From IMG/VR virus record IMGVR_UViG_3300028549_001457, positions 214,786 through 278,785 of that record: a stretch of DNA of 64,000 bases. One strand, written 5' to 3'. Source of the stretch: a virus. Lineage: Duplodnaviria; Caudoviricetes. A model generated the notes under the pieces. The model saw only the letters and a program-made list of their open reading frames with translations, made no database searches and was not told where the DNA came from. The stretch's first letter is position 1; every line of letters begins with the position of its first letter. Positions 4,915 to 13,580 of the stretch are shown piece by piece. The translations under genes and the position numbers were made by a program.

Positions 4915-5592
4915 ATGTTAAGAGTGTCTCGCCTGTTTTTAGCTGATTCTAACCCAAGATATAAGTATCCTAGAACGTTTCATATTCCGGGGAGCCCTGG
5001 GGCTACCTCAGATGATAAAATATTAAGTAGTATGGATCATTTTAAAGGACAAGAGGTCGTAATAACTGAGAAAATGGATGGGGAAAATACAACCATTTAC
5101 CCTGACTATTTGCATTCTCGATCACTAGATAGTAATAACCATCCCTCAAGGAATTGGGTGAAACGACTCCAGAGTGAGATTGGTTATAAGATACCTGATG
5201 GAATGCGGATCTGTGGGGAGAATGTTTTCGCCCAGCATTCACTCGGGTATGATAAGCTTCCCAGTTATTTCTTAGTGTTTAGTGTATGGGAGGGAGATAC
5301 GTGTTTGTCCTGGGATGACACGGTTCTAATTTGCAATGAACTCAATTTAAAAACAGTTCCAATTCTCTATAAAGGACCCTTTGTGGAGGATAACCTAGAG
5401 AAGAAATTTTTCTCGGGGACCTCTTCTTTTGGGGGTGGGCAGGAGGGTTTTGTAGTTAGGTTGGCTAGGGCGTTTAACCGTGCGGAATTCTCAAAAGCAC
5501 TCGCTAAATGGGTGCGGCCAAATCATGTCCAAACTGAGACACACTGGACACAACAGCCAATAGTTCCTAATAAGCTAGAAGAGGGGGACTAG
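4915..5592 (+). CDS. ATP-dependent RNA ligase (Rnl2-like family)
   Basis: KYPRTFHIPGSPG start, motif I ITEKMDGEN, ICGENVFAQHS, EGFVVR, KWVRPNHVQT. Confidence 0.85.
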   Translation: MLRVSRLFLADSNPRYKYPRTFHIPGSPGATSDDKILSSMDHFKGQEVVITEKMDGENTTIYPDYLHSRSLDSNNHPSRNWVKRLQSEIGYKIPDGMRICGENVFAQHSLGYDKLPSYFLVFSVWEGDTCLSWDDTVLICNELNLKTVPILYKGPFVEDNLEKKFFSGTSSFGGGQEGFVVRLARAFNRAEFSKALAKWVRPNHVQTETHWTQQPIVPNKLEEGD

Positions 5593-5639: not shown

Positions 5640-8600
5640 ATGTCTTTACTTGCTAATTCACTAAATAAGCGTGTTAAGCGTAATCTGGTTTCAATTTTAG
5701 ACTTTGCAGAAGCAGCGTGGGGGCCTCAAATTGAGCTAACCCCGGCACAAAGATTCTCGGTCAAGTTAATTTATAAGATACCCTTGGATGACAAGGCAAA
5801 AGTCATCCGAGTATGGGATAAGTTCAAAGAGAACTTGCTCTACACCCTTACTGAGACTGAATATCGAAAATATTTAAACGAAGAAGTTGGTAGATTAAAT
5901 CTCACCCATGATATGGCTCACATAGAGGGTAACTTCAGCACTTTCATTCGCTGTTGGGGCAGGAGGTCGGGCAAAACGTGCCTACATTCCACGCTAATTA
6001 ATACACACGATAATGGACTAGTTAAAATAAGTGATCTTTGGCCTCTAGAGGATAAGGTTAAGGATAACTATATGCCTCTAATTTCCCCGACTTTTGTCAT
6101 GACTGATCGAGGATGGAAACAGGCTACTGAGATTTACTACGGAGGGGTTAAGAAACTCTTAAAACTGAAGCTAAGCAACGGAATCTCAGTGGAGCCTTCC
6201 CCAGAACATAAATTCAGGACCCTTGATCTTGAAGGGGCCTATGTCTGGAAATTGGCTGGGGATTTCGTGGTGGGGGATACGTTTTGTTTACTGGCTGAAA
6301 CACCTATAAGTGAAGCTCCCACTTCTAAGGACACACTAGAATCAGCTCTTTTCCTTGGGATGCTCTATGGGGATGGTTGGTGGGGTGATGAGTATTCCCT
6401 GGGTTTATGCAGTCATAAATCTGAGTGGGGGTTGGTTAACTTTGTGGATAGTTTTTTAACAACGCATGAACTTTCTCACCGTAAAAGTGTCTACACAACA
6501 AATAGCAACGTATGGGCTTGGACTATCCATGCATCTTCAGGAAGACCCTTCAAAAGGACGTGGGGTCTCACGTCATACCAGGAGAGTCAAAAAAGAGTTT
6601 CTGAAAAAATATTGGCCTTTCCCCCTGAAGCCCGTAAAGCCTTCCTCTCAGGATTGCTTGCAACAGATGGGCATGTAACTAAAGATTTAGGTCATTTTGA
6701 AATTACCCTAAAGCCTAAAGGCCTCATCGAGGATATTCAGCAGTTATTTCTCTCATTAGGTGTGCATTCAACCATCCACCAGAAAGTTGTAAAGCCTAAG
6801 CCAGGGAACCAGGGTGGAACCTATTGGAAACTTACCACGGTAGGCGCAAACACAAATAAGCTTCTGGACATCTTTAAGTATTGCCCACTAAAGCGTAAGA
6901 CAGAAGAGCTATTGACCAAGCAAGCCAAGCATTCTTATAAGTCTTCTTTCGGCGCTTACGACAATCTGCTGCCTAGATTCGAACGTATTTTCTCACAGCA
7001 TTCCTTCGGCTATCACACTGATCGCACCAAGTCATTTAAAATCACCCCTAAGGGCTTCAATGATTACTATGCCTATTATCAAAAATATCTTGAAGTCTAT
7101 GCTCATGCACATACACTGAGTGCTAGTGACCTCCTTCATTTCCAAAAAGCTAATAACCGCAGAACTACAGGGCTTGAGATTGGCAGAGCTATTTCTAAGG
7201 CTATTGCTGATTATAGGAAGGATTCTCAAGACTCTCAGATTGGACAATCACTTCCTTCACCGGAGTTTACTAAAGAACTGGAAGAACTTAAGTGGATTTT
7301 TGATACAATAATCCCGCTTGAGATTGTCTCCATTGAAGAGTCCGAGGGAGAAGTTTACGACTTACATGTTCCTGATGGGAACACCTACCTAGCAAATGGT
7401 ATAGTTTCTCATAATTCTGAGATCACCGCATTGGATATGGCATATGGGATCTACTTACTCCTTGAGAAGTATAACCCCCATGATTATTACCATATGCCAC
7501 CCAACACCGAAATCTTTATCCCTGTGCTGGGAACCTCTCAGGATTCATCTAAACGAACTTTCCGCAAAGTTCGCAATATGTTGTCAAGCTCTGGATACTT
7601 CACAAACTACTGCAACAAAGAAGATCTGCAGGAACTATTCTGTAAAATATACACACCGTTCCAGCGTGAGCAAAATGCACAGTTCCCGTCTATTATTGTT
7701 CAAGCGTTCCCTCTATCTGAATCCCAGGTTCGTGGCCCTGCATCTTACAGGTCTGTTTGCGATGAGATCGCTCACTGGCCGCATAGGGGTGCGGTATCAG
7801 ATCTAGAGGTGCTGAAGGCTATTGAACCTTCGTTAGCCACATTTAAAACTTCAGAAGACTCCCACTCTGAAGCTATGATTTTCCTGATCTCTAACGCGGG
7901 GGTGCGCTCGGGCCAGTTCTTTGAAATGATTGAAAAGGCTAAAAAAGAGGGGGATAATGCATCAGCCATTGTGTATCAGGCACCTACCTGCGAATTAAAC
8001 CCTACACGAATTAGTTCTCATGAACTTTTAGCTTACTTCAATAGGTATGGTGACACCGCTTACCGTACCGAGTATCAGTCTGAATTTGTGGATTCGATCT
8101 CTCAGTGGCTCTCCATGGAAGAGTTAAATGAGATGTTCAATCAATCCAGATCCAATAATACTATTAGACAGAATAACCCCACACTTGCATACCAGTATTT
8201 CCCTAAAGCTATCTGGCCTCAATACTTTTATGGTTTCGACTTGGGGTTGAAGAATGACGCTGCTGCGGTAGCTATTTGCCATTGGGAAACTAATGAGTTG
8301 CTGGCAACCCGTAAATTGGTCTTTGATTATGTAGATCGTAGAAAAGCTGGAGAAGGCCAGTATGCACATAAGAAAGAGCTAACCGGGGATGATATCGTTG
8401 AATGGCTCTACCAGTTATCTCAAGTATACCCCATTGCAGATGGTGTTTATGACCAATGGTCTGGGACTCTTTTTGGGCAAATGTTAGCCAAAAAGGGCAT
8501 TAAGGGCCTTAGAATGGAATCTTTCACTGAGTCAACCAATTCCCTCGTATACCTATCCTTTCGTGCATTATCATTAAATCAAGAGCTAAATATCCCCACG

Positions 8601-8933
8601 CTTAACAATAAAGATCTTGAGAACGAAATTCAGCTTCTGCAATGTGAGTTGCGTCCTGGGAATCGAATTAAGGTTGAGGCCCCCCACGGAGACGAATACC
8701 ACGATGATAGAGCTGACGCTATCGCAAGAGCTTGCTGGGTGGCCATGGGCTTCCTAGAGTCACGAGGGTCAGGAAAGGCTCCAGCTCAGCAGGTAACTCG
8801 TATGGGGACCGTCTCGGGTAACCCTGGGTATATGACCGACAGGGGTGCAGTTTCTCGCTACCGAGCAAGTGCCGCTAGTGACCCTAGATCCTTTGCTCGG
8901 ATGATGGCTATCAAGCAGAGTAAGAAGAGATAA
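5640..8933 (+). CDS. terL: Terminase large subunit, intein-containing
   Basis: Walker A GRRSGK(T/S) interrupted by an intein, Walker B VCDEIAHW, nuclease motifs YGFDLG, YDQWS, HDDRADA. Upstream of the portal gene. Confidence 0.9.
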   Translation: MSLLANSLNKRVKRNLVSILDFAEAAWGPQIELTPAQRFSVKLIYKIPLDDKAKVIRVWDKFKENLLYTLTETEYRKYLNEEVGRLNLTHDMAHIEGNFSTFIRCWGRRSGKTCLHSTLINTHDNGLVKISDLWPLEDKVKDNYMPLISPTFVMTDRGWKQATEIYYGGVKKLLKLKLSNGISVEPSPEHKFRTLDLEGAYVWKLAGDFVVGDTFCLLAETPISEAPTSKDTLESALFLGMLYGDGWWGDEYSLGLCSHKSEWGLVNFVDSFLTTHELSHRKSVYTTNSNVWAWTIHASSGRPFKRTWGLTSYQESQKRVSEKILAFPPEARKAFLSGLLATDGHVTKDLGHFEITLKPKGLIEDIQQLFLSLGVHSTIHQKVVKPKPGNQGGTYWKLTTVGANTNKLLDIFKYCPLKRKTEELLTKQAKHSYKSSFGAYDNLLPRFERIFSQHSFGYHTDRTKSFKITPKGFNDYYAYYQKYLEVYAHAHTLSASDLLHFQKANNRRTTGLEIGRAISKAIADYRKDSQDSQIGQSLPSPEFTKELEELKWIFDTIIPLEIVSIEESEGEVYDLHVPDGNTYLANGIVSHNSEITALDMAYGIYLLLEKYNPHDYYHMPPNTEIFIPVLGTSQDSSKRTFRKVRNMLSSSGYFTNYCNKEDLQELFCKIYTPFQREQNAQFPSIIVQAFPLSESQVRGPASYRSVCDEIAHWPHRGAVSDLEVLKAIEPSLATFKTSEDSHSEAMIFLISNAGVRSGQFFEMIEKAKKEGDNASAIVYQAPTCELNPTRISSHELLAYFNRYGDTAYRTEYQSEFVDSISQWLSMEELNEMFNQSRSNNTIRQNNPTLAYQYFPKAIWPQYFYGFDLGLKNDAAAVAICHWETNELLATRKLVFDYVDRRKAGEGQYAHKKELTGDDIVEWLYQLSQVYPIADGVYDQWSGTLFGQMLAKKGIKGLRMESFTESTNSLVYLSFRALSLNQELNIPTLNNKDLENEIQLLQCELRPGNRIKVEAPHGDEYHDDRADAIARACWVAMGFLESRGSGKAPAQQVTRMGTVSGNPGYMTDRGAVSRYRASAASDPRSFARMMAIKQSKKR
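5976..7415 (+). mobile_element. Intein with LAGLIDADG homing endonuclease in the TerL P-loop (~480 aa; starts at 5976 Thr or 5979 Cys)
   Basis: (T)CLHSTLINT..., block B SPEH, LAGLIDADG blocks FLGMLYGDG and FLSGLLATDG, block F VYDLHV, block G GIVSHN followed by +1 Ser. Confidence 0.92.
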
Positions 8934-8935
8934 TC

Positions 8936-9433
8936 ATGGCGAACTGTGTGGCTGGGGGCACGTATATCATAACAGAGTCAGGATTCCATAAATTGAAGGA
9001 TCTTTGGCCAGAGGAACTTCCGCTTATTCCTGACACACTCCACACATTTCCCAAGCCTGTTAAAATAGCGACTGATTTGGGGCCTGGGGACGCTACCGAA
9101 ATGTACTATGGAGGTCCCAGAAAAGTTCTTGTTATAAGCTTTTCAAGTGGGATAACTCTGTCCATGACGCCAGAGCACATCCTGAAAGTACCTTCTATTA
9201 CAGAGGACCTCCATGAGGTTGCTGTCTGGAAGTATGGGTGTGACTTAAGGGAGGGCGATCAGGTTTACTGGGTTGGGTTGTATGATCTTAGCCAGGAAAA
9301 TACTGATGAAATGTATCTTGTTGACCATACTTCAATTGTATCTATTTCAGATGGCCTAGAGGATGTTTACGACATTAGAGTCCCAATAATTTGCACATAT
9401 ATAACCAATGGGGTTGTCTCTCATAACAGCTAA
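8936..9433 (+). CDS. Free-standing mini-intein (Hint domain) with 3-aa N-extein (MAN) and 1-aa C-extein (S)
   Basis: MAN|CVAGGTYIITESG...TPEH...VYDIRV...GVVSHN|S-stop. The intein part is 8945-9427 (161 aa). No endonuclease domain. Confidence 0.88.
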   Translation: MANCVAGGTYIITESGFHKLKDLWPEELPLIPDTLHTFPKPVKIATDLGPGDATEMYYGGPRKVLVISFSSGITLSMTPEHILKVPSITEDLHEVAVWKYGCDLREGDQVYWVGLYDLSQENTDEMYLVDHTSIVSISDGLEDVYDIRVPIICTYITNGVVSHNS

Positions 9434-9483
9434 CCCCCAAAGTCACTTTAATTGGACTCTGATATATTTTAGAGGTAGCATAC

Positions 9484-12180
9484 ATGACAAAGAAAAAAGT
9501 TGCCGCAGCAAAGCCCACAAGTATCCCAGCTTCATTTAGTGGGAGTTCTGTGACTACCTCCGTTTCTCTAGGTGTCCCTAAGTATTCTCAATCCATGTCT
9601 TCTGTGGAGAGAATGGATAATCTGCGTCAGATGCGTAGCCAAAAAACAGCCTCGTCCCACACGGCTCTTTTTGGGGTTGGTGGTGGTATGGGTGGGGCTA
9701 CTGGATCTCTCAATCCTTCAAATTACACTAACCCTTATACCCATAACTTCCCGGTAGATATTCTTGAACGTCCGCAAAGTAGGCAGGAGCAGATCGAGTG
9801 GAACGTCAGATGGTACCGTGAGAACCCCATTGTTAGGCGGGTAATTGATCTTCATTCTCAGCTACCGCTGTCTAAAATGACTATCACAAAACCTGCTTCG
9901 TCTTCACAGGCATTTAGCAATTATGTCCATAAATTCTTCTTGGACATGGCTAAGAATATGAAGCTGATACCTAAATTGAGAAGCAACCTGGGGAAGGCAT
10001 ATTGGCTTCATGGGGATGATTTCATCTTCCTAGAAGACCAGAAATTAGACCCTAATGCTACGAATGATAGTGAGTATCAAACAGTTCCAAGTGAATACGA
10101 TAACCAAGCTAGAACAAACTTCTTTGACGTCCACCGGCATATACATACGTCATCCCAAAAAGATTGGGACGTCAAATACGCGAAAATGCTAGCAAATCCC
10201 CTGTTTGCACTGGTCCCCCAATTGCGAGAGCAGGCCCTTCAGGGGTCAACCCCTCGTCCCTCGGGGCCTTTCTTAGATGAGTGTGAATTTAAAGATGTTT
10301 TTGGTAATGACGCAAACTCGTTTCTACAAGTAATCCATACACTTAAAAATGCGGCTTACGAGTTGAAGAAATTTGCTGATACCATTAATGGTAAGCGTAA
10401 AGCGGATATTTCTCGTCTAAATCCCTTGGTGCTTGCTAAGTTAGGTCCTGAGTTTTTATCGTATAAACATCACAGTGCGTATGTAGCCTACAAAAGTGGA
10501 TCTGTTAAGACTGCAGAAGTTAAGGTTGCGGCTGAGGATTCTGAGGGTCCCAATGATGTAGATATGGCACTTGATCCATCCAAACGTCCGGTGTTTAAGC
10601 TCATCGGGTTGGACCCCATTAATGTCCAGAATATCCCAAGAAATGAACGCTCTGTTAGCCCCACGCCAAACCTTGATTTTCAGAAGTTCTTGCAGGATAA
10701 CCCGACTATTCAGAAGGCGCTTTCGGAGCTACCTAATCCAAATGAGCCCGTTCAAATCAATAAAACTGAGGAGGATGTCAGTGTAATGGTGTATGGACCC
10801 GATGGGGTTACGCCGTTGCGAGAGGATGATACTTTTGCGAAAACCCCAGAGGAAGATTCAGACATGGGTATGGGGGATATAGCCGACTTAGACATGGGGC
10901 CACTCCCAGATGACATTATGGCCTCCCCCGAAAATGACCCTGAATATATTGAAAATCTTGAAATCTATAATAAAAACTTAGTTCGCAAGAAGGAGCTTCT
11001 TGAAAAACTAATAGATGAATTAACGTCTAAAGCAACCGACTATAGATGCTTTGCTAATATTAAATATCCTAAATATAAGGGTTGGCAAGCTATGCGGTCC
11101 TTGCCTCCCCATCAAATTGAGGTGGCAAGAAAATCCAATTCAGATGTTAAAGAAATATTTTATATCCCATCTGAAGAAGAAGCCGCAACTATCCAAGCCA
11201 ATTTTGATGATTTATCTGAGGAGGCTCAAGGCTACTGGAAGGCTAAAAAGCGGCTGTTGTTATCGTCTGAAACATCAAATGAGCCCAGTCTAACCAATAA
11301 GGACCTTCCCGCAGACGGGTCTTACTGTGTCCAAGTATCTAACGCCCGTTCTGACTTTGAGTTGTATGGGCATGGATTAGTAGAGCCCTGTTTACGTGAC
11401 TTGATTCACGATGATAAAATTGGGCAGGTAAAGAGCCAAACTTTCGCTAGGAATATGCAGCCTAAGAGACTCGTGGTGGCGGAGGGAGTCGATGACGCTA
11501 CGTTGGCCAAACTACAGGATATGGTGGATGCTTCCACGGTAGACCCAGACGTCTCTATTATTACTAATTATCCAGTTACTTGGCAAGAAATGGGTGTTGG
11601 AGACCGCATTCAGAGTTTTGAAGGTGAGTATTCTCATATTCTTACCAATTTAACTGCTGGATTAGCGTTCTTCCAGGAGTTTATTACTGGACAGATCTCC
11701 TATGGTGGGTCTAAGACTCCACAGGAAATCATGAACACTATGTATTTAGCCTTCAGAGAAGACATTTCATTTTTTATCCAGGAGTGCATCTTTAGACCTG
11801 TTGCAGAACGTAAAGGTTTTTATGATGTGGATGAATTTGGGCAGAAAATCCTTATATACCCAAATATATCATTCTCCAGATTGGCTATCCGTGATGCCGG
11901 TGATACCTATGACATGCTAATAAATCTCTACCTTAAGGGTTCCGTATCTATTTCTAGAATTTATGAGATCCTGAATATTGATGAAGAAGAGGAAACCCAG
12001 AAACTTGAGGATGAACTCTTTACTATTAAGGACCCCAAATTCACAGAGCTTCTTGCGGGTATCTACCAGAATGTTGCACAGACCCTCGTTGAACGAACTA
12101 ACATAACTGAAATGTTAGCCAAGAATATGGGTTTGACATATGAAGAACCCTCAGATGATGGTGGAGGCCCTCCTCTATAA
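9484..12180 (+). CDS. Portal protein with a long insertion
   Basis: 898 aa, RBS GAGGT, follows terL. Portal-like segments WYRENPIVRRVIDLHSQLPLSKM, YWLHGDDF, YGHGLVEPCLRDL, NLTAGL, ECIFRPVAERKGF. Confidence 0.7.
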   Translation: MTKKKVAAAKPTSIPASFSGSSVTTSVSLGVPKYSQSMSSVERMDNLRQMRSQKTASSHTALFGVGGGMGGATGSLNPSNYTNPYTHNFPVDILERPQSRQEQIEWNVRWYRENPIVRRVIDLHSQLPLSKMTITKPASSSQAFSNYVHKFFLDMAKNMKLIPKLRSNLGKAYWLHGDDFIFLEDQKLDPNATNDSEYQTVPSEYDNQARTNFFDVHRHIHTSSQKDWDVKYAKMLANPLFALVPQLREQALQGSTPRPSGPFLDECEFKDVFGNDANSFLQVIHTLKNAAYELKKFADTINGKRKADISRLNPLVLAKLGPEFLSYKHHSAYVAYKSGSVKTAEVKVAAEDSEGPNDVDMALDPSKRPVFKLIGLDPINVQNIPRNERSVSPTPNLDFQKFLQDNPTIQKALSELPNPNEPVQINKTEEDVSVMVYGPDGVTPLREDDTFAKTPEEDSDMGMGDIADLDMGPLPDDIMASPENDPEYIENLEIYNKNLVRKKELLEKLIDELTSKATDYRCFANIKYPKYKGWQAMRSLPPHQIEVARKSNSDVKEIFYIPSEEEAATIQANFDDLSEEAQGYWKAKKRLLLSSETSNEPSLTNKDLPADGSYCVQVSNARSDFELYGHGLVEPCLRDLIHDDKIGQVKSQTFARNMQPKRLVVAEGVDDATLAKLQDMVDASTVDPDVSIITNYPVTWQEMGVGDRIQSFEGEYSHILTNLTAGLAFFQEFITGQISYGGSKTPQEIMNTMYLAFREDISFFIQECIFRPVAERKGFYDVDEFGQKILIYPNISFSRLAIRDAGDTYDMLINLYLKGSVSISRIYEILNIDEEEETQKLEDELFTIKDPKFTELLAGIYQNVAQTLVERTNITEMLAKNMGLTYEEPSDDGGGPPL

Positions 12181-13580
12181 TGACCAAGTCTTGCCTTGAT
12201 CTATTAAGGGATAATTTTGAGACCCTCCGTAAGGGTGGGACCATCCCACTTGAGGGTCTTTCACCTGAGTGTAGTGAATTTGTCTCTATGCTAAATGATC
12301 TCGCAAAACCTTGGGATTCTGAGCGTAAAAGACTAGCTAAAGATCGTCTTTTTATTAGCAGTATCCTGGATTCAATCCCCCAGGGGGTGTTTTGGAAGGA
12401 CACAGATAGTGTGTTCCTGGGGTGCAACCGCCCTTTCGCGGATATGAATAAACTATCTATGGATAAAGTTATAGGAAAAACTGACTACGAACTGGTGGAT
12501 AGTAGTTTAGCGCTACACTTCAGATCAGAGGATCTTGAGGTGTTGACAACTTTGAAAAGAGTCTACTCCTTGAGTCCACCCTCGGATAGTAAACAACGCT
12601 ACACACTTACCACAAAATGTCCTTTAATAGTTAATGATGTTCCTACTGGAGTTATCGGAGTTTCAGAAGATATCACGGATAGAAAAATTGCGGAGCTTCA
12701 GCTCAGCTTAAGTGAGGTTAAGTTTAGAACGCTAACAGAATCTCTAACTGACATTGTATGGATGATGGACCAATCTTTTAATATGTCTTATGTAAACCCT
12801 GCTGTGACTAGGTATACCGGGTTTACCGTGGATGAGATTTTAAAGCTACCTTTAGAAAAACGATACGCCCCTGGAACGGTTAAAACTATCCAAAAACGCC
12901 TTCGCTTTTTAGATGACCCTACGTATATAGGGGACTCAGTAGAGGCAGAGGTCTACCGTAAGGATGGGTCTACGATTTGGATGCTGACTAGATATACTGT
13001 GCTGAGGGGTGCTAAGGGGGAGGTATTTGGGTTTGTCGGCGTGTCTACAGATATCACTGCTCAGAAGAAAAAAGAGTCTATCCTCACGGATTTTGCAACT
13101 CTGGATGGGCTTACTGGTGTGATTAACCGTAGATATTTTATGGAACGGTTGAATGATGAGATGGATCGAGCTTTTAAATATAAAATACCTCTATCCGTGG
13201 CTATGCTAGACATAGATTACTTCAAGAAAATTAATGATACATATGGGCACCCAGCCGGGGACTCAGCTCTGCTCCAATTTGTGGGTGTCATTCAGGGGTG
13301 TCTACGCCAATCAGATTTCCTAGGTAGATTGGGAGGTGAGGAGTTTGCAGTGGTTCTTCAGGGAACTTCTGTAGATGCCACAAAGATTCTCGTGGAGAGA
13401 ATTAGACAATCTGTGTCTGAAACAGTTGTTTCACATGGGGCACTTTCGTTTAACATGACTGTCTCATCCGGTATTACTGGATTAAAAATGACTGATACGG
13501 CAGAGGCTATTATGGCTCGGGTAGATCAGGCCCTTTACGATGCTAAGGGATCCGGGCGAAATTGCTACCGAGTTATTTGA
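12180..13580 (+). CDS. PAS-PAS-GGDEF diguanylate cyclase
   Basis: Two PAS/PAC units (ILDSIPQGVFWKD...DITDRK; LTESLTDIVW...DITAQK), DGLTGVINRR, DIDYFKKINDTYGHPAGD, I-site RQSD, A-site GGEEF. ATG overlaps the portal TAA. Confidence 0.95.
   Translation: MTKSCLDLLRDNFETLRKGGTIPLEGLSPECSEFVSMLNDLAKPWDSERKRLAKDRLFISSILDSIPQGVFWKDTDSVFLGCNRPFADMNKLSMDKVIGKTDYELVDSSLALHFRSEDLEVLTTLKRVYSLSPPSDSKQRYTLTTKCPLIVNDVPTGVIGVSEDITDRKIAELQLSLSEVKFRTLTESLTDIVWMMDQSFNMSYVNPAVTRYTGFTVDEILKLPLEKRYAPGTVKTIQKRLRFLDDPTYIGDSVEAEVYRKDGSTIWMLTRYTVLRGAKGEVFGFVGVSTDITAQKKKESILTDFATLDGLTGVINRRYFMERLNDEMDRAFKYKIPLSVAMLDIDYFKKINDTYGHPAGDSALLQFVGVIQGCLRQSDFLGRLGGEEFAVVLQGTSVDATKILVERIRQSVSETVVSHGALSFNMTVSSGITGLKMTDTAEAIMARVDQALYDAKGSGRNCYRVI

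Follow-up and report, generated by a model that had tools for sequence, protein, structure and literature searches.

The window analysed here, a stretch of 64,000 nt, corresponds to the final 64 kb of a jumbo phage record of 278,785 bp in IMG/VR, and the public runs in which it is contained are microbial-mat metagenomes, with no RNA run listed among them. Between the terminase gene terL and the portal gene lies an ORF of 165 codons, for which an earlier reading of the letters alone (the sequence-only reading) had proposed a stand-alone mini-intein gene with near-absent exteins. This description was confirmed, the ORF being composed of the leader MAN, an intein and a single Ser followed by TAA. 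The features of the region are listed in Table 1, together with those of the relatives used for comparison. The latter were collected by a search with the portal protein, which returned seven homologs; contigs were compared for six of them (labels L005 to L012), the seventh, P0009, having 36% identity.

The window TerL shows remote similarity by tblastn to the annotated terminase of Tunturiibacter phage Tunturi_5 (308 kb). The slot 5' of terL, where the window has an RNA ligase gene, is occupied in relatives by an unannotated gene of about 225-240 aa. The diguanylate-cyclase-like PAS-PAS-GGDEF gene that follows the portal gene is also found at this position in L005, L006 and L011; the two closest phages share only about 50% identity in it, and L008 and L009 lack it there.

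Table 1. Features of the terL-portal region of the window and features compared in other contigs. Slashes within sequences mark splice junctions; pLDDT refers to the AlphaFold2 model.
Feature	Position	Strand	Remarks
RNA ligase	4915-5592	+	Pfam RNA_ligase, E 4.8e-35; directly 5' of terL
terL, 1097 aa	5640-8933	+	phrog_9; LAGLIDADG intein at Walker-A site, GRRSGK/T...HN/S
TerL intein	5976-7415 (aa 113-592)	+	both LAGLIDADG motifs intact
terL 3' end, TAA (8931-8933) and 2-nt gap	8919-8935	+	site of the portal Shine-Dalgarno and ATG in relatives
Mini-intein gene, ATG start, 165 aa and TAA (9431-9433)	8936-9433	+	leader MAN, intein Cys4-Asn164, +1 Ser165
Block A, CVAGGTYIITESG, aa 4-16	8945-8983	+	Cys1 nucleophile; from alignments with mini-inteins
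Block B, TPEH, aa 78-81	9167-9178	+	H81 invariant; T78 in 12/14; TPDH in L005
Linker at the usual endonuclease position, aa 112-132	9269-9331	+	low pLDDT at aa 121-130
Blocks F and G, VYDIRVPIICTYITNGVVSHN/S, aa 144-165	9365-9430	+	V144-Y-D146, His163, Asn164, +1 Ser165
Spacer, 50 nt	9434-9483	+	GAGG before portal ATG; 3' part homologous to DNA of the L005 'C-extein' SLDLGVC
Portal, 898 aa	9484-12180	+	phrog_16240
PAS-PAS-GGDEF gene	12180-13580	+	directly 3' of portal
Mini-intein homolog, 169 aa	L005:1120-1629		intact; terL-portal slot
terL, mini-intein ORF and portal in one frame	L005:1111-1632		split only by TAG (+6 nt) and TAA
PAS-PAS-GGDEF gene	L005:4348-5721		after portal
PAS-PAS-GGDEF gene	L006:12790-14193		after portal
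PAS-PAS-GGDEF gene	L011:5459-6838		after portal
terL without intein	L008:3223-5073
terL without intein	L009:8151-10001
terL without intein	L012:6155-7981
DUF7487 gene, 672 aa	L012:7983-10001		terL-portal slot; weak YacG-like zinc-finger match
Second DUF7487 gene	L012:12645-14576		directly after portal
ORF with four inteins	L004:2701-8232		IMGVR_UViG_3300037264_004781; at least 3 mini-sized (C...HN/S or T)

The ORF is not a product of assembly: contigs of run X2, which belongs to another study than the probable source sample, span positions 8400-10000 with 0 differences and 0 indels, and an indel joining the ORF to a longer one was accordingly not found in them. As had been noted from the letters, its frame is distinct from those of terL and portal, the start positions modulo 3 being 0 for terL, 2 for the mini-intein gene and 1 for portal. 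Upstream of its ATG the mini-intein frame is open for just 4 codons, which makes a longer N-extein impossible. The gene is co-oriented with terL and portal, no promoter or terminator lies in between, and no excess of either was found around it; an Rfam scan of 8500-9800 gave no match. The last terL codons and the 2-nt gap are likely to serve as coupling and initiation region for the ORF.

The predicted protein reads MAN/CVAGGTYIITESG...TPEH...VYDIRVPIICTYITNGVVSHN/S, and each of the catalytic motifs named in the sequence-only reading was found: Cys4, T78-P-E-H81, V144-Y-D146, H163-N164 and, just before the stop, Ser165. Block A follows the pattern C-V-x-G-x-T-x-I-x-T; when aligned to other mini-inteins, Cys4 is matched by Cys in 13 out of 14, and T13 and G16 are invariant. 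The auxiliary His of block F is replaced by Cys153, the other core class-1 positions being canonical. Among family models, TIGR01443 (intein_Cterm) scores 19.4 bits, over its cut-off of 15.6, TIGR01445 (intein_Nterm) 19.9 bits, under its cut-off of 24.5, and PF14890 (Intein_splicing) 21 bits with an E-value of 3e-4, under its cut-off of 35.8. The reported absence of an endonuclease was also verified, since the mini-intein matches neither the LAGLIDADG nor the Hom_end models, whereas TerL matches both.

A structure was predicted by AlphaFold2 from an alignment with 14 contiguous mini-inteins, and the resulting model (pLDDT 92, pTM 0.86) is uncertain only at linker residues 121-130. Foldseek compares it, with a probability of 1.00, to more than 40 intein structures, the top ones being the Mxe GyrA, Tvo VMA, Ssp DnaB and Mtu RecA mini-inteins with TM values of 0.7-0.8; as modelled, the protein has the Hint (horseshoe) fold. 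No features of a split-intein fragment or of an IntC-IntN bridge were found, blocks A, B, F and G being contiguous and in normal order, and TerL being a single uninterrupted ORF. The in-frame insertion into a host protein with conserved ligated exteins that marks an intein is missing too, as only MAN and S flank the domain. A possible DNA mimic was considered on account of the net charge of -14 and the pI of 4.5, and was rejected, since ordinary intein splicing domains reach such values too. Judged by its motifs, the ORF encodes a complete class-1 mini-intein that has no endonuclease and is flanked by 3+1 residues.

According to the sequence-only reading the mini-intein is a paralog of the TerL intein, with which it aligns co-linearly. 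The alignment was reproduced by BLASTP as two segments of 38% identity each, over residues 14-108 (E 5e-13) and 96-165 (E 3e-8). The motifs DLWP, YYGG (ATE.YYGG) and VWK are also found in DnaB, PIF1 and PolA inteins of other genomes, several of which score equal to or above the TerL intein against the mini-intein, and the P-L-[IV]-P-D-T stretch that follows DLWP is closer to the DnaB, PIF1 and PolA inteins than to TerL. When 79 splicing domains were placed in a tree, the window protein paired with the one stand-alone homolog described below (SH-aLRT 90). The pair falls into a weakly supported polytomy (SH-aLRT 80) with three TerL inteins and four others, the latter including at least two helicase inteins, P0012 (DnaB) and P0018 (PIF1); by path length, the TerL inteins are the nearest to the pair. 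In this group the insertion point follows the Walker-A lysine (GK/C...HN/S or T). What stood of the claim is the similarity and the common group, not the sister relation: because motifs and scores are common to DnaB, PIF1 and PolA inteins and the tree group is weak, paralogy to the TerL intein is only possible, and it is safer to regard the mini-intein, on its sequence, as a member of a group of P-loop-site inteins (TerL, DnaB, PIF1).

The TerL inteins of the phage clade have a peculiarity of their own. When exteins were aligned (GRRSGK/T(C, L or I)...SHN/SEITA versus GRRSGK/SEITA in intein-less proteins), they were found to start with Thr instead of Cys or Ser (/TCLHST in the window, /TLSKST in L006, /TIGKDC in P0015), in contrast to the stand-alone proteins with their canonical Cys1. 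They are not class 3 inteins, because block F has Asp. Such a Thr1 nucleophile is unusual, and splicing might be slow or conditional. On the portal tree the distribution of the TerL intein is patchy, as it is present in the window, L006 and L011 and absent from L008, L009 and L012. This patchiness, along with the two intact LAGLIDADG motifs, fits an actively homing element.

The closest relative of the window is L005, whose portal protein has 82% aligned identity and is sister to that of the window with 99/99 support. Its terL-portal slot contains an intact mini-intein ortholog, so that absence or decay of the gene in all relatives, which was looked for, is not the case. The homolog reads MDGLSYT/CVDGSTLITTE...TPDH...VYDLHVPDVHTYIANGVVSYN/SLDLGVC, with a stop codon directly adjoining the portal ATG (TAAATG); it keeps the F-block His, and Tyr replaces the penultimate His. 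The linker stretches WVGLYDLS and L.DHT are identical in both stand-alone copies and missing from other inteins; WVGLYDLS was discarded as a significant conserved motif, since 8 consecutive identities in a pair that is 48% identical lack significance once all positions are allowed for.

In five more distant relatives (L006/L007, L008, L009/L010, L011; portal identity 64-68%), the gap between the terL stop and the portal ATG measures 0-6 nt, and the portal Shine-Dalgarno lies within the last terL codons. In L012 (portal identity 52%) the slot holds an unrelated DUF7487 gene. All relatives compared have a complete, alignable TerL C-terminus and portal N-terminus. The ortholog in the same slot of L005, the short gap in the five relatives and the unrelated gene in L012 point to a separate insert some 0.5 kb long, acquired a single time in the lineage from which the window and L005 derive; the terL-portal junction is a site that tolerates insertions. 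The GC content of the mini-intein gene, 0.44 against 0.43-0.45 for its neighbours, indicates amelioration. A target-site duplication was rejected, the two junctions flanking the insert being no more alike than shuffled sequence (p 0.6-0.8), and so was a duplication of the terL intein together with its extein flanks, since the flanks of the stand-alone genes and those of the terL P-loop show no significant similarity (p 0.36-1.0). A second DUF7487 gene of L012 directly follows portal, and the two are possibly mobile genes using the same junctions.

Further carriers were searched for in several collections. When 1.84 billion cluster representatives were searched exhaustively with phmmer, 124 proteins were identified at E<=1e-3. 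No more than two of them, the query and the L005 protein, are stand-alone; a match of 162 aa is a chimeric piece derived from an RNR intein, and the remaining ones are inteins within proteins of 300-5600 aa, such as RNR, DnaB, PolA, PIF1 and TerL. No additional homolog emerged from IMG/VR and JGI metagenome contigs, scanned with the single protein and with a two-sequence profile. The lone IMG/VR match, L004, was set aside as an unrelated protein of 1843 aa from an unrelated virus, with four inteins in a single ORF (Table 1). A word-indexed profile search of proteins of 90-290 aa gave just gene fragments of DnaB and RNR inteins, and tblastn against 50,697 GenBank phages only the RNR mini-inteins of Campylobacter phages. 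Within the sequence family of the window and L005, as covered by these searches, the stand-alone form is confined to two phages. The ESM Atlas lists viral clusters of 159-220-aa 'Intein splicing/PT-HINT' proteins, which may be more stand-alone Hint genes or fragments, and free-standing Hint genes may extend beyond this family. No report of a free-standing intein with a complete catalytic set emerged from phrase searches of the literature.

Selection was estimated from the single pair formed by the window and L005, the two known sequences, for which dS is saturated: in every gene pS is 0.72-0.85 and four-fold-site identity 0.22-0.37. The mini-intein ORF has an amino acid identity of 48%, a pN of 0.325, a pS of 0.72 and a pN/pS of 0.45 (bootstrap 0.35-0.57; NG86 omega 0.19), similar to the adjacent GGDEF gene (50%, pN 0.336, pN/pS 0.41); portal (82%, pN 0.121, pN/pS 0.155) and the C-terminal part of TerL (90%, pN 0.074, pN/pS 0.088) are listed for comparison. 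Differences per site at codon positions 1, 2 and 3 of the mini-intein amount to 0.31, 0.30 and 0.63. In 5000 neutral simulations, in which random changes were introduced up to the same nucleotide divergence, amino acid identity averaged 0.30 and never exceeded 0.39, versus the observed 0.478, and the frame was kept open in just 0.4% of the cases. Codon-position bias and simulations indicate purifying selection on the protein sequence, beyond the open frame. The proposal of selection on an extein-less Hint protein, made in the sequence-only reading from the intact residues, is supported by these results and by the intact ortholog, and from the comparison of the two sequences the mini-intein is very probably a real gene under purifying selection.

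The flanks behave differently from the body of the protein. The leaders, MAN and MDGLSYT, do not align, and the tails are S in the window and SLDLGVC in L005, where the latter is produced by reading through into DNA homologous to the non-coding pre-portal spacer of the window. The hypothetical ligation products would be MANS and MDGLSYTSLDLGVC, respectively. Because the flanks are not conserved between the copies, what is selected is the Hint body and not a spliced peptide.

These observations are best accommodated, with a probability that we put at about 0.6, by a translated, self-standing class-1 mini-intein gene, acquired in a single insertion, whose Hint domain is kept as an exapted (domesticated) intein. 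It would descend from inteins located at the Walker-A lysine of phage or bacterial ATPases (TerL, DnaB, PIF1), and would have been inserted once, as a cistron of its own, exactly at the tight terL-stop/portal-start junction of the common ancestor of the window and L005. There it would have taken over the initiation context that serves portal in relatives, portal gaining a ribosome-binding site of its own further downstream. Translation would occur by coupling to terL, the ATG being located 2 nt past the terL stop; it may depend on such coupling because the Shine-Dalgarno match 5' of the window ORF is weak, while L005 has AGGTG. Selection would then act on the Hint domain as folded and not on a peptide ligated from the exteins.

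The chemistry to be expected is an N-S acyl shift and Asn cyclisation, which would trim a leader of 3-7 residues and a tail of 1-7 residues. Both copies keep Cys1 and TxxH, the Asp of block F, the Asn at the end of the intein and the +1 Ser. Retention of all 6 core residues has a p of about 0.01 at 48% identity; when the two assisting His are included it falls to 6 of 8, with a p of about 0.12, and as a sign of preserved chemistry it is only suggestive. As the core nucleophiles survive in both copies, self-processing has an even chance of having been retained. Of the His residues assisting Asn cyclisation each copy has lost a different one, the window having Cys153 and L005 a Tyr instead of the penultimate His; for this reason C-terminal cleavage may be impaired, and the pattern hints at relaxed constraint on the C-terminal step.

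Inteins are usually seen as parasites, which stay functional only because the host protein dies without splicing. This usual reason, the rescue of an essential host protein, is absent here, as the mini-intein has no host protein. With class-1 mini-inteins at ATPase P-loop sites the gene shares the Hint fold (TM 0.7-0.8), blocks A, B, F and G, Cys1, TxxH, Asp, HN and the +1 Ser; these, however, sit in host proteins, whereas the window gene sits in none, and its exteins, 3+1 residues (7+7 in L005), are not conserved. BIL and Hedgehog Hog/Hint domains also have the Hint fold and use it for autoprocessing instead of splicing a host enzyme; they occur at the C-terminus or in the interior of larger proteins that are secreted or act in signalling, process a real cargo, and often miss the +1 nucleophile. 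The mini-intein has no cargo and does have the +1 Ser, and BIL/Hog entries appear in the Foldseek list at ranks 23-50, being outranked by inteins in sequence as well as fold searches.

The published extein-less genes of intein origin that come closest are the stand-alone HO and WHO genes of yeasts, where HO is a domesticated selfish element and WHO genes are placed directly downstream of a conserved host gene; both keep the LAGLIDADG nuclease, add a C-terminal zinc finger, are devoid of block G and act as nucleases (PMC7282813). The mini-intein is the opposite case, as it has no nuclease, keeps all splicing blocks, is borne by a bacteriophage and is only 165 aa long. A survey of actinobacteriophage inteins reports non-canonical endonuclease arrangements, none of them like the window mini-intein (10.1101/2025.01.02.630785). 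A mini-intein which has no host protein, is fully equipped for splicing and evolves under purifying selection makes selection on the Hint domain separable from selection on exteins; it offers a natural test case for the intein fold acting alone, and a counterpart in a prokaryotic virus to the domestication of HO/WHO in yeast. If active, an intein of 161 residues tolerating flanks of 3+1 residues would be a possible scaffold for protein engineering. Its interest to intein and phage biologists is limited by there being two metagenomic carriers.

The strongest alternative to a domesticated Hint domain, still an unlikely one, is a selfish relic: an orphan mini-intein in an insertion hotspot, of no benefit to the phage, which would persist by being included in the co-conversion tract of the TerL intein and by its coupling into portal. 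The junction is indeed a hotspot, as the DUF7487 gene of L012 indicates, the L005 stop abuts the portal ATG, the TerL intein is as patchy as expected of active homing, just two carriers are known, and the flanks are not conserved. Coupling, however, would select for an open frame only, yet pN is well below pS and codon positions 1 and 2 change half as often as position 3; in the window, moreover, the 50-nt spacer and GAGG of portal indicate that coupling is not tight, and hitch-hiking would spread the DNA without preserving a fold.

As regards function, none of the analyses run indicated a partner or an activity, and a complex prediction with TerL residues 1-620 gave no support. As to the domesticated Hint domain, our best guess is that it serves the packaging and head module, with which it is presumably co-transcribed. 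A more specific and rather improbable form of this guess is that an active intein was freed from its host and recruited as a trans-acting Hint factor of the packaging module, for example in the maturation of the Thr1-intein terminase or at the portal. Were it true, a new functional class of viral Hint proteins would be defined, with an intein kept by selection for its own activity and not for rescue of a host protein.

Slightly more doubtful still is a free Hint protein modulating TerL maturation or packaging in trans, which would bind the TerL precursor, with its weak Thr1, or portal, and so tune splicing or packaging. The position next to terL and portal, in the same orientation and with no promoter or terminator between, the membership in the same broad group as the TerL intein and the room that its unusual Thr1 leaves for regulated splicing are in line with it; but L006 and L011 have the TerL intein alone, so the latter does not need the mini-intein. 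No evidence was found for the trans regulator of TerL splicing suggested in the sequence-only reading, nor for the thioester-forming ligation module named beside it, the difference between the N-exteins MAN and MDGLSYT speaking against a role in transferring an N-terminal peptide.

That the gene is an ordinary intein in a tiny host gene, from which splicing releases a micropeptide, is very improbable: the class-1 nucleophiles and the +1 Ser are kept in both copies, as it would require, but the predicted products differ in length and sequence, the C-extein of L005 is a read-through into spacer-homologous DNA, and a product of 4 residues is implausible as a selected function. Scarcely any weight is given to an artefact, in which an indel, recoding (frameshift, read-through or bypass) or a wrong start would hide an intein within TerL or portal; L005, with its three genes in one frame and single stops between them, could be read that way, but the window genes occupy three frames with the mini-intein frame closed 4 codons 5' of the ATG, separate contigs show no indel, TerL C-terminus and portal N-terminus align end to end with insert-less relatives, no slippery heptamer precedes the terL stop, and a gene-60-like hop of 49 nt from AGC to AGC lands outside the portal frame. 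The common frame in L005 is probably a coincidence, because the window does not have it.
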